DNA from: Centroscyllium fabricii
Taxonomy: Eukaryota
Direction of reading: 5' to 3'
DNA length: 64,000 nucleotides
NCBI GenBank assembly: GCA_051313645.2
Contig: JBNRSN020000053.1
Location: forward strand, 4,402,001 to 4,466,000
The notes beneath the pieces were generated by a model. It made no database searches. It was not told where the DNA came from and saw only the letters and a list, made by a program, of their open reading frames with translations. The position numbers were made by a program, and so were the translations under genes. Of this stretch, positions 57,901-60,900 are shown one piece after another (positions within the stretch are counted from its first letter, which is position 1; each line of letters opens with the position of its first letter).

Positions 57901-60900
57901 GGGAGAGATTGAGTCGATTGGGCTTATACTCACTGGAGTTCAGACGATTGAGAGGGGATCTCATCGAAACCTATAAAATTCTCAGAGGCCTGGACAGACT
58001 GGAGGCAGGAATGATGTTCCAGATGGTCGGAGAGTCCAGAACCAGGGGCCATAGTCTAAGGATAAGGGGAAAGCCATTTAGGACTGAGATGAGGGGGGAA
58101 TTTCTTCACCCAGAGAATGGTGAACCTGTGAAATTCTCTACCACAGAGGGCAGTGGAGGCAGGTTCATTGAATATGTTCAAGAAGGAGTTGGATATATTT
58201 AAGAACATAAGAACATAAGAAATAGGAGGAGTAGGCCAATCGGCCCCTCGAGCCTGCTCCGCCATTCAACAAGATCATGGCTGATCTGATCCTAACCTCA
58301 ATTTTATTTTTACTCTCCACCCCGCCCAGACCCATGTGATCACCTGGGAGAGGCGAAAAACCCGATTTTAAAAACCAGTAGCCAATTTGGGAGAAATAAA
58401 ATCAGGAAAATTCTTCTCCGACCCATCTAGGCGATCGAAAACTGGTCCAGGAGATCACATGGCCGATCTGAACCTAGCCTCACGTCCACTTACCAGCCCG
58501 TTCACCATAACCCCTAATTCCCTTTAATTCCAGGAAACTGTCTATCTCAGTTTTAAATTTATTCAACGTAGTAGCTTCCACAGCTCTCTGGGGCAGCAAA
58601 TTCCACAGCCGCACCACCCTCTGAGTAAAGAAGTTCCCCCTCATCTCAGTTTTGAAATGGCAGCCCCTTATTTTAAGATTATGCCCCCTAGTCCTAGTCT
58701 CACCCACCATTGGGAACATCCTCACCGCATCCACCCGATCAAGCCCTCTCACAATCTTATATGTTTCAATAAGATCGCCTCTCATTCTTCTGAACTCCAA
58801 TGAGTAGAGGCCCAATCTACTCAGCCTCTCGTCATATGTTAGCCCCCTCATCCCCGGAATTAACCTAGTGAACCTTCTCTGCACTGCCTCGAGAGCAAGT
58901 ATGTCCTTTCTTAAATAGGGACACCAGAACTGCACGCAGTATTCCAGGTGTGGTCTCACCAATACCCTGTACAACTGCAGCAAGACCTCCCTGCTTTTAT
59001 ACTCAATCCCCTTAGCAATAAAAGCCAACATTCTGTTGGCCTTCCTTACCACCTGCTGCACCTGCATATTAACTTTTTGTGTTTCCTGCACCAGGACCCC
59101 CAGATCCCTTTGCACTGAAGTACTTTCCAGTTCCTTTCCATTTCTTCAGGCTGAAGGGATCAAGGGATATGGGGAGAAGGCAGGGACAGGGTACTGAATC
59201 TGAAAGATCGGTCATGATCTCATTGAATGGCGGAGCAGGCTCGAAGGGCCGACTCCTGCTCCAATCTTCTATGTTTCCTGCTTGTGTTTCATTCTCCAGT
59301 TTTGATGAAGGGTCCGAACCCGAAACGTCGACTCTTTCTCTCCACCAATGCTGCCTGGCCTGCCGAGTTTTTCCAGCATTTTCTGTGGTTATTAATTTGT
59401 CCATCATTGTCTTAGAGAAGCTGGCAGGGTACCAAGCCCCTGGAGTAAAACTTGTGCCTCTTAATTTAGATCCAACAAAAACTAGATGGTTATATTTATG
59501 AAATTACAGTCTCATTATCGAATGCAGAAGAAAATTCCTCGTACTGGAAAATGAGTCGATATTTAAGATTAAGTTAGTTTCAACTTTTTCCACACAGGTG
59601 CATTTTGCTTACGAGTTGGTGGAAGATGTTTCAGCACTGCAGCTCAGGACGAGGCGCTGTTGAAATGGTTGAGCTGCATTAACCTGAAGCAAAGGGGAAA
59701 CAGAAAAGAAACCGCACAGGCAGGAATGGAGAGGAAAGATGAGCATTCAAAGCAGGCGATTCTCGGAAGCATCGATCTACGGCACTATCACAGCCTCCTC
59801 TCTCACGTCACCTGGTTCTAGATGTAGAATAGGAAAGCGTGTATAGAAATAGGCTCTCTGAAAGCTTTTTATCTCTGCAACAGACACAGAGACATCAACA
59901 AGACAAAAAGAAAAAAAAATGATCCCTTTAAAAAATAAATCATATTAACAATGAGAACTGCAAGATACATAAGATTTGGTCTCCTTTGGTACTTTGTTAT
60001 TGTCAATGAGCAATTTAGCAATTACAGTGTCGGCTGCATCTTCAGGAGTCAGTGCTGAGCACAGATCAGGCATTCCCCTAAAGAGGGAGGAGGGAGATAT
60101 CAAAGAAAAAGAAGTCACTTTTCTCACTTCTTGTCAAGTTATGGAACAGTATTAGCGAAGGCCTGTGAGCAGATCACCTGCCTACCTTCTGAGAAATGGT
60201 GTTCTAAAGGGAAGGTGGGAATGAGAGTGTAGAACTAAAGACAGAACATTTTACAGGTGAAAATAATGAGCGATTGTCATTAAACAGACTGATTCCTACC
60301 ATTTTGCAAGGAGCATACTGCCAGTTATGCAGCTTCTAATACAGGGTACTACTGGTTTCACACAGGGCCACTCAAAAGTCAGCAAACCAAAGAGTGAGTG
60401 AGTGAATATATTCTGTGCTACATGGCAGAAAAATGACCCTCCTTGCATTCTATAAAACCTATCCTAATATTTTCAGCACTAACTGTCTGGAGTACTTAAA
60501 AGTAAAGTCCAATTGGCAACTATGATTCTTTTCATAGAATCATAGAAAGTTACAGCACGGAAGGAGGCCATTTCGGCCCATCGTGTCCGCGCCGGACAAC
60601 AAAGAGCTATTCAGCCTAATCCCACTTCCCAGCTCTTGGTCCGTAGGCCTGCAGGTTAGCGCATCCCAAGTGCACATCCAAGTACTTTCAACAAGTTTGG
60701 GATGAAAACAGTCCAGTACTCAGTTTACCAACCACTGCTTAGAAATGGGATGCCTAAAGTAATTTCTTATTTCCTTTTCTAAGCAAGTGAAACTCGCCTG
60801 AGGTAAAGAGGTGATGATTGGATTGTCCTATCTGCAGGTCACAAGTTAGCGTGGGGTGGTAATTAAAACTCGCCAAAACTTATGGCGAGCACGTGTCCAC

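Follow-up and report, generated by a model that had tools for sequence, protein, structure and literature searches.

Loop-2 Cassette Exons of Non-Muscle Myosins

Exon A2 of MYH9 is 63 nt long, lies at loop 2, opens with the second base of a split GAG codon (PMC10480317) and has been placed between exons 15 and 16 (PMC13158602). It occurs in the brain of mouse and human; in the mouse, 15% of the MYH9 transcripts in brain and 5% of those in muscle contain it (PMC10480317). The mouse A2 donor, GTGACT, is weak, and strengthening it (C-to-G at +5) raises inclusion, which is promoted by RbFox3 and, less, by MBNL1 and NOVA1 (PMC13158602). In the human protein, the insert leaves a Vmax of 0.017 per second, against 0.38 without it; gliding is abolished, actin tethering is kept, and a 20% share of A2 myosin made the plain motor about four- to five-fold slower, for which the authors propose an interference of A2 with actin-activated phosphate release (PMC10480317). 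Loop-1 and loop-2 variants of MYH9 in the nervous system had already been mentioned (PMC7566000).

Two paralogues carry inserts of a similar kind. MYH14 C2 is a loop-2 cassette at an analogous position, the same place as A2, and A2 and MYH10 exon B2 are nearer to each other than to C2 (PMC10480317). C2 comprises 33 residues and makes the motor phosphorylation-independent; by its description, it is likened to A2 by position. Conservation of A2 is stated among mammals in Das et al. 2023 (PMC10480317), and the A2 alignment in PMC13158602 (Mallick et al. 2026) covers ten species, a fish possibly among them. Literature searches, mostly within the openly available literature, found no paper that treats A2 or B2 in cartilaginous fishes, nor any on the evolutionary origin of the two exons beyond the remark in PMC10480317 that sets them apart from C2; PMC10982375, PMC5583752 and bioRxiv 10.1101/2025.10.28.684953 contributed nothing further.

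Host Gene and Exon

The analysed stretch of DNA (hereafter, the window) comprises 64,000 nt of a Centroscyllium fabricii contig, and its minus strand carries a myosin heavy-chain gene, represented by its 3′ two thirds. The best matches of exon 16 in a protein search were chondrichthyan myosin-9 sequences (94-97%), with one teleost protein ranked above them at 78%, and the top solved-structure match in a PDB search was myosin-9. Catshark MYH9 aligned as 40 collinear tblastn pieces across the window and 120 kb upstream. Judged by these matches, the host gene is MYH9, so it is not MYH10, the host of B2. The features of the locus are as follows.

51488-51681, minus strand: constitutive exon 16, downstream of the cassette, opening with VDRIVG
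51682-61195, minus strand: intron 15, host of the cassette, 9,514 nt
59720-59969, minus strand: conserved block enclosing the cassette, from contigs of related organisms
59806-59811, minus strand: weak donor GTGACG (exon end CAG|GTGACG; mouse equivalent GTGACT)
59812-59874, minus strand: cassette exon, orthologue of MYH9 A2, 63 nt, phase 1-1, adding 21 residues to loop 2
59875-59919, minus strand: T-rich pyrimidine tract (59919-59878) and TGCAG acceptor (CAG at 59877-59875)
61196-61310, minus strand: constitutive exon 15, upstream of the cassette, terminating with LWRD and a phase-1 G

A stop-free 63-nt exon of phase 1-1 in intron 15, preceded by a pyrimidine tract and a cag acceptor, had been claimed in the original prediction. 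The reading of the sequence reproduces the exon exactly at 59874-59812, between exons 15 and 16, and both acceptor elements are present. Joined to the phase-1 G of exon 15, the frame yields 21 residues without a stop; the computed net charge of the insert is +1, and nine of its residues are hydrophobic or aromatic. Searches of the shark's own genome found the cassette in a single copy.

Identity with MYH9 Exon A2

The shark insert and the mouse A2 peptide (PMC10480317) share 16 of 21 residues in a comparison by eye, and four of the five differing residues are within the first 12. The junction between exons 15 and 16, the length of 63 nt and the GAG codon split after its first base are the same in mouse, human and shark. 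The mouse acceptor ends in tgcag|ag, as in the shark, and the donors, GTGACT in mouse and GTGACG in shark, have GTGAC in common (PMC13158602). The host introns differ in size: intron 15 is 9.5 kb long in the shark, while the mouse fragment spanning exons 15-16 is 3.8 kb. The two mouse A2 primers (PMC13158602, supplement), also compared by eye, match the shark exon at 20/22 and 18/21 bases; all three mismatches of the latter are synonymous, as are most differences in the primer-covered 3′ half.

Both flanks of the insertion point were found in 83 of 123 proteins. Seven of these carry an A2-type insert (three turtles, a gecko, a quail, an owl and a marsupial) and one has an unrelated 15-residue insert. 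Identity of the shark insert to the amniote models was 15/21 in the four that were scored. The closest sequence belongs to another shark: the RefSeq models X1 and X2 of Scyliorhinus canicula myosin-9-like (XP_038639471.1 and XP_038639472.1) contain, between the same flanks, an insert identical at 20/21 residues, with I where C. fabricii has T. These are computed models, which no paper found links to A2, and they are the only two insert-bearing isoforms among 51 chondrichthyan MYH9 isoforms, so that one of 21 named species is represented. A protein search with the exon and its flanking intron codons gave five candidates and no match, a weak negative given that insert-bearing proteins exist, and a PDB search with the same query gave 0 matches.

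By sequence, then, the shark exon is the orthologue of mammalian MYH9 exon A2, old and conserved rather than new, and it is already modelled in one shark, since it matches mouse A2 and the catshark models include it. The 20/21 catshark and 15/21 amniote identities bear out the claim of a loop-2 cassette exon in the MYH9 gene of a cartilaginous fish, and the 63-nt mammalian MYH9 counterpart mentioned in that prediction is A2 (PMC10480317, PMC13158602). The exon had also been called hidden. This description has to be dropped: RefSeq already includes a near-identical insert, and the right name for this described exon is A2.

Relationship to MYH10 Exon B2

A search with shark MYH10 exon 16, extended with protein clusters, collected 210 proteins, 173 of them with both flanks. 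Among the latter, 154 lack an insert, 17 have a B2-type insert and two have other inserts; all 17 B2-type inserts are from teleost MYH10. The comparison with B2 therefore uses teleost inserts, mammalian B2 being outside the set. Six distinct teleost inserts of 21 residues are identical to the shark exon at 8-9 of 21 positions, and their pair scores were matched by 0-39 of 200,000 shuffles. A profile of teleost B2 placed the shark exon first among 127,876 21-codon windows of the analysed stretch (score 30.2, next 26.3).

The likeness is concentrated in residues 1-11, where 7-8 of 11 are identical and both exons start with E-I-x-x-x-Q-R-A-x-F-Y. The last ten residues, of which 8-9 are identical among A2 inserts, share only 1-3 with the teleost B2 inserts, whose second halves are unrelated to that of the shark exon. 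The predicted relation to B2 holds, with the first profile rank, through the N-terminal part only. Teleost B2 occupies the same junction in the same phase and has 19-22 residues. In contrast to the weak shark A2 donor, the B2 donor is strong in mouse (PMC13158602). The shared junction, phase, length and N-terminal half make a common ancestry of A2 and B2 very likely, and the likely source is one exon older than the MYH9/MYH10 split.

Three exon searches of the C. fabricii genome found only three genes of the non-muscle/smooth type, corresponding to MYH9, MYH10 and MYH11. They returned no MYH14-like gene, which may mean loss, divergence or an assembly gap. MYH10 (98% to elasmobranch myosin-10) is on contig C678, where more distant myosin heavy-chain genes also form a cluster, and MYH11, identified by its best PDB matches, is on contig C446.

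L003:201-1498 / L013 (contig C678): MYH10 intron 15, about 1.3 kb, with the unusual donor GTTCGT

In this intron, no score of the A2, B2 and joint profiles exceeds 9.2, and no candidate for a B2-like exon passed the splice filter. In intron 15 of MYH11 (4.9 kb), the same profiles reach a score of at most 16, without fitting splice sites. None of the 40 elasmobranch MYH10 isoforms examined, from 17 named species, has an insert; two of the clusters used entered with 15 of 23 and 15 of 47 members. Absence from annotation weighs little here because A2 itself is annotated in one of 21 species. The lack of a B2-like exon in shark MYH10 intron 15 and in 40/40 elasmobranch isoforms is new here. It suggests that elasmobranch MYH10 lost its copy of B2, with one genome as the direct evidence. 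In exon 16, the scores put MYH9 and MYH11 nearer together than either is to MYH10, a one-exon hint that MYH11 may have lost a loop-2 cassette as well.

A different history would give the same likeness. The exon could have arisen in one paralogue and been copied to the other by gene conversion, either before the shark/bony-fish split or afterwards into MYH10, in which case shark MYH10 may never have had it. The empty introns 15 of MYH10 and MYH11 in this shark and the 40 insert-free isoforms would fit such a history, and descent, for its part, requires losses in MYH11 and elasmobranch MYH10. However, A2 and B2 (8-9/21) are more diverged than the flanking exons of the two genes (14-17 and 11-12/21), no sign of a recent transfer is seen, and the loop-2 insert C2 occupies this place in a third paralogue. 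Gene conversion is accordingly considered unlikely, and we infer that A2 and B2 descended through gene duplication.

Conservation and Splicing in Related Organisms

Contigs of two related organisms show no listed substitution in positions 59720-59969, versus 22 in 474 bases of flanking intron. The Fisher test gives p = 1e-4 for the block against its flanks, or 1e-3 with the one unlisted difference counted as inside it, for a block whose bounds were set after seeing the data and which was read from single contigs with a depth of 4-13. Taken alone, the exon is only marginally more conserved than the flanks in these organisms (p about 0.05). Their contigs have two small deletions, both inside the T tract of the block.

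One relative's contig, from run X2 (depth 1031), runs from exon 15 directly into exon-16 sequence, which is the skipping join. The inclusion join was absent from the listed contigs of runs X1-X7 and X12 (8 of 13 runs, with RNA origin guessed for seven runs); this counts neither way because contigs drop rare variants. Unspliced low-depth contigs cross the exon in X1, X2, X3, X4 and X7, and X5, X6 and X12 are without coverage there. Of the two forms that a cassette would show, skipping is represented by the X2 contig and inclusion by the computed catshark models.

Regulated cassette exons usually have conserved flanks. This bears on the possibility that the A2 orthologue is vestigial in sharks and almost never enters protein, being kept for a reason at the RNA level, such as the pace of splicing or a regulatory element. 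Such a role would fit the 49 of 51 annotated chondrichthyan MYH9 isoforms that lack the insert, and the conserved block, which includes synonymous sites and reaches about 90 nt past each exon end. Flank conservation of this kind is, however, ordinary for regulated cassette exons. Moreover, shark and amniotes have the frame, the length and 15-16 of 21 residues in common, most of the differences from mouse in the 3′ half covered by the primers are synonymous, and the catshark models include the exon. We therefore regard a purely vestigial exon as quite improbable and retain a coding A2 orthologue as the preferred reading.

Splice Sites

Splice sites were scored not with MaxEntScan but with the gene's own matrix, derived from 34 introns of this MYH9 that were placed automatically, a few of them seemingly wrongly. 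On this scale, the cassette acceptor is mid-range (9.7), and the donor (5.4) is below 25 of 34 leave-one-out scores. None of the other 34 donors placed in MYH9 here starts with GTGAC. The combination of a weak GTGAC donor and an adequate acceptor is that of A2. The cassette ranks second among the 448 frame-keeping, stop-free AG..GT candidates in intron 15; the top one, 60 nt at 56063-56122 on the minus strand, scores slightly higher. The splice signals alone hence do not prove the exon, and it is homology that lifts it above chance. A chance open stretch between decoy splice sites, conceivable in an intron with 448 such candidates and one of them better, is already refuted by orthology to A2, as identities of 20/21 to annotated inserts and 16/21 to an experimentally shown one, all at this junction, leave it practically no probability.

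A longer 114-nt form, starting at an upstream AG (59925), was rejected because a 1-nt deletion at 59911 in the relatives would shift its frame. No GCATG was found within 250 nt of the shark cassette, and mouse has none there either (PMC13158602). YGCY motifs (MBNL-type) number nine in the 250 nt downstream (59562-59811, minus strand) against a mean of 3.5, in the top 2% of intron windows. As one among ten comparisons, this excess is only a hint.

Loop-1 Cassette and Other Features

The same MYH9 gene has a 21-nt loop-1 cassette upstream of the window (L020:661-681, minus strand; C1078:4496661-4496681), with AG/GTGAGT splice sites and the coding capacity for QSTVLAY. TGCATG occurs about 40 nt upstream of it. 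The cassette is present in 28 of 51 chondrichthyan MYH9 isoforms and skipped in the others. Loop-1 splicing was not detected in mouse MYH9 (PMC10480317). At loop 1, elasmobranch MYH10 has not only the 10-residue B1 type but also a similar piece of 7 residues with Y at its end.

A segment made of the end of intron 15 and part of exon 16 of MYH9 recurs as three dispersed copies (L004, L005 and L006, on contigs C335, C822 and C1044). They are 96-99% identical to the window, with the source at 51534-52254 and 60926-61198, and all are fused at one common point to the same LINE-type reverse-transcriptase fragment. The L005 copy starts at the intron-15 donor, jumps about 8.7 kb and omits the cassette; L004 and L006 extend less far on this side. 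The arrangement resembles the product of a template switch, either onto MYH9 pre-mRNA or onto a splicing intermediate, probably followed by multiplication.

Automatic junction placement indicates two GC-AG introns in MYH9, with the donor GCAAGT, at window positions 45710 and 23199 on the minus strand; a third GC donor call, at 13826, is seemingly misplaced. A very young repeat was noted at L005:2484-2766 and in many places on C1 and C2, with copies 99-100% identical over about 117 nt and a second copy close by, at a distance of about 146 nt (40 of 833 candidates scored).

Proposed Functioning of the Shark Isoform

The reading that joins these observations has a probability of roughly 0.88: the shark exon is an A2 orthologue with a weak donor, likely skipped in most tissues and likely included in brain, and its product is a motor predicted to bind actin but hardly move it. 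By analogy with mammals, default skipping would be likely in most tissues because U1 pairs poorly with GTGAC. Inclusion, likely in brain, would be driven by RbFox, and by MBNL1/NOVA1, at the weak donor. The included exon would add 21 residues and lengthen loop 2 from its N-terminal side, with a predicted low actin-activated ATPase of the shark A2 isoform, again as in mammals. This isoform is predicted to co-assemble with the plain isoform, and the mixed filaments would be slow because of that co-assembly, so that A2 myosin would act as a brake or cross-linker. From the mammalian data, we infer a brain-biased, motor-damping isoform in the shark.

Significance

Exon A2, in only about 15% of MYH9 transcripts in mouse brain, is not known to have a role in the animal. 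That its frame, most of its residues and its weak donor are kept in a shark argues that selection has acted on it since the jawed-vertebrate ancestor and that it is not splicing noise of mammals. For a motor assay, the invariant residues, QRAYFY and the hydrophobic half FPILHLE, suggest themselves as the ones to mutate.

As the exon is known and already modelled in the catshark, the gain lies in its evolutionary context. The ancestral vertebrate non-muscle myosin may have had a short loop-1 cassette and a 63-nt loop-2 'brake' cassette, which the paralogues then sorted differently by lineage. Elasmobranchs would have kept A2, its weak GTGAC donor and a loop-1 exon in MYH9; B2 in MYH10, and perhaps all of MYH14, would have been lost, leaving A2 as the sole loop-2 brake, maybe in the cerebellar role that B2 has in mammals. 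This scenario is tentative, somewhat short of an even chance. If elasmobranch MYH10 is truly without B2, sharks would offer a natural experiment on whether one of the two exons can replace the other. What deserves attention is the way in which the paralogues sorted their loop-1 and loop-2 cassettes lineage by lineage.
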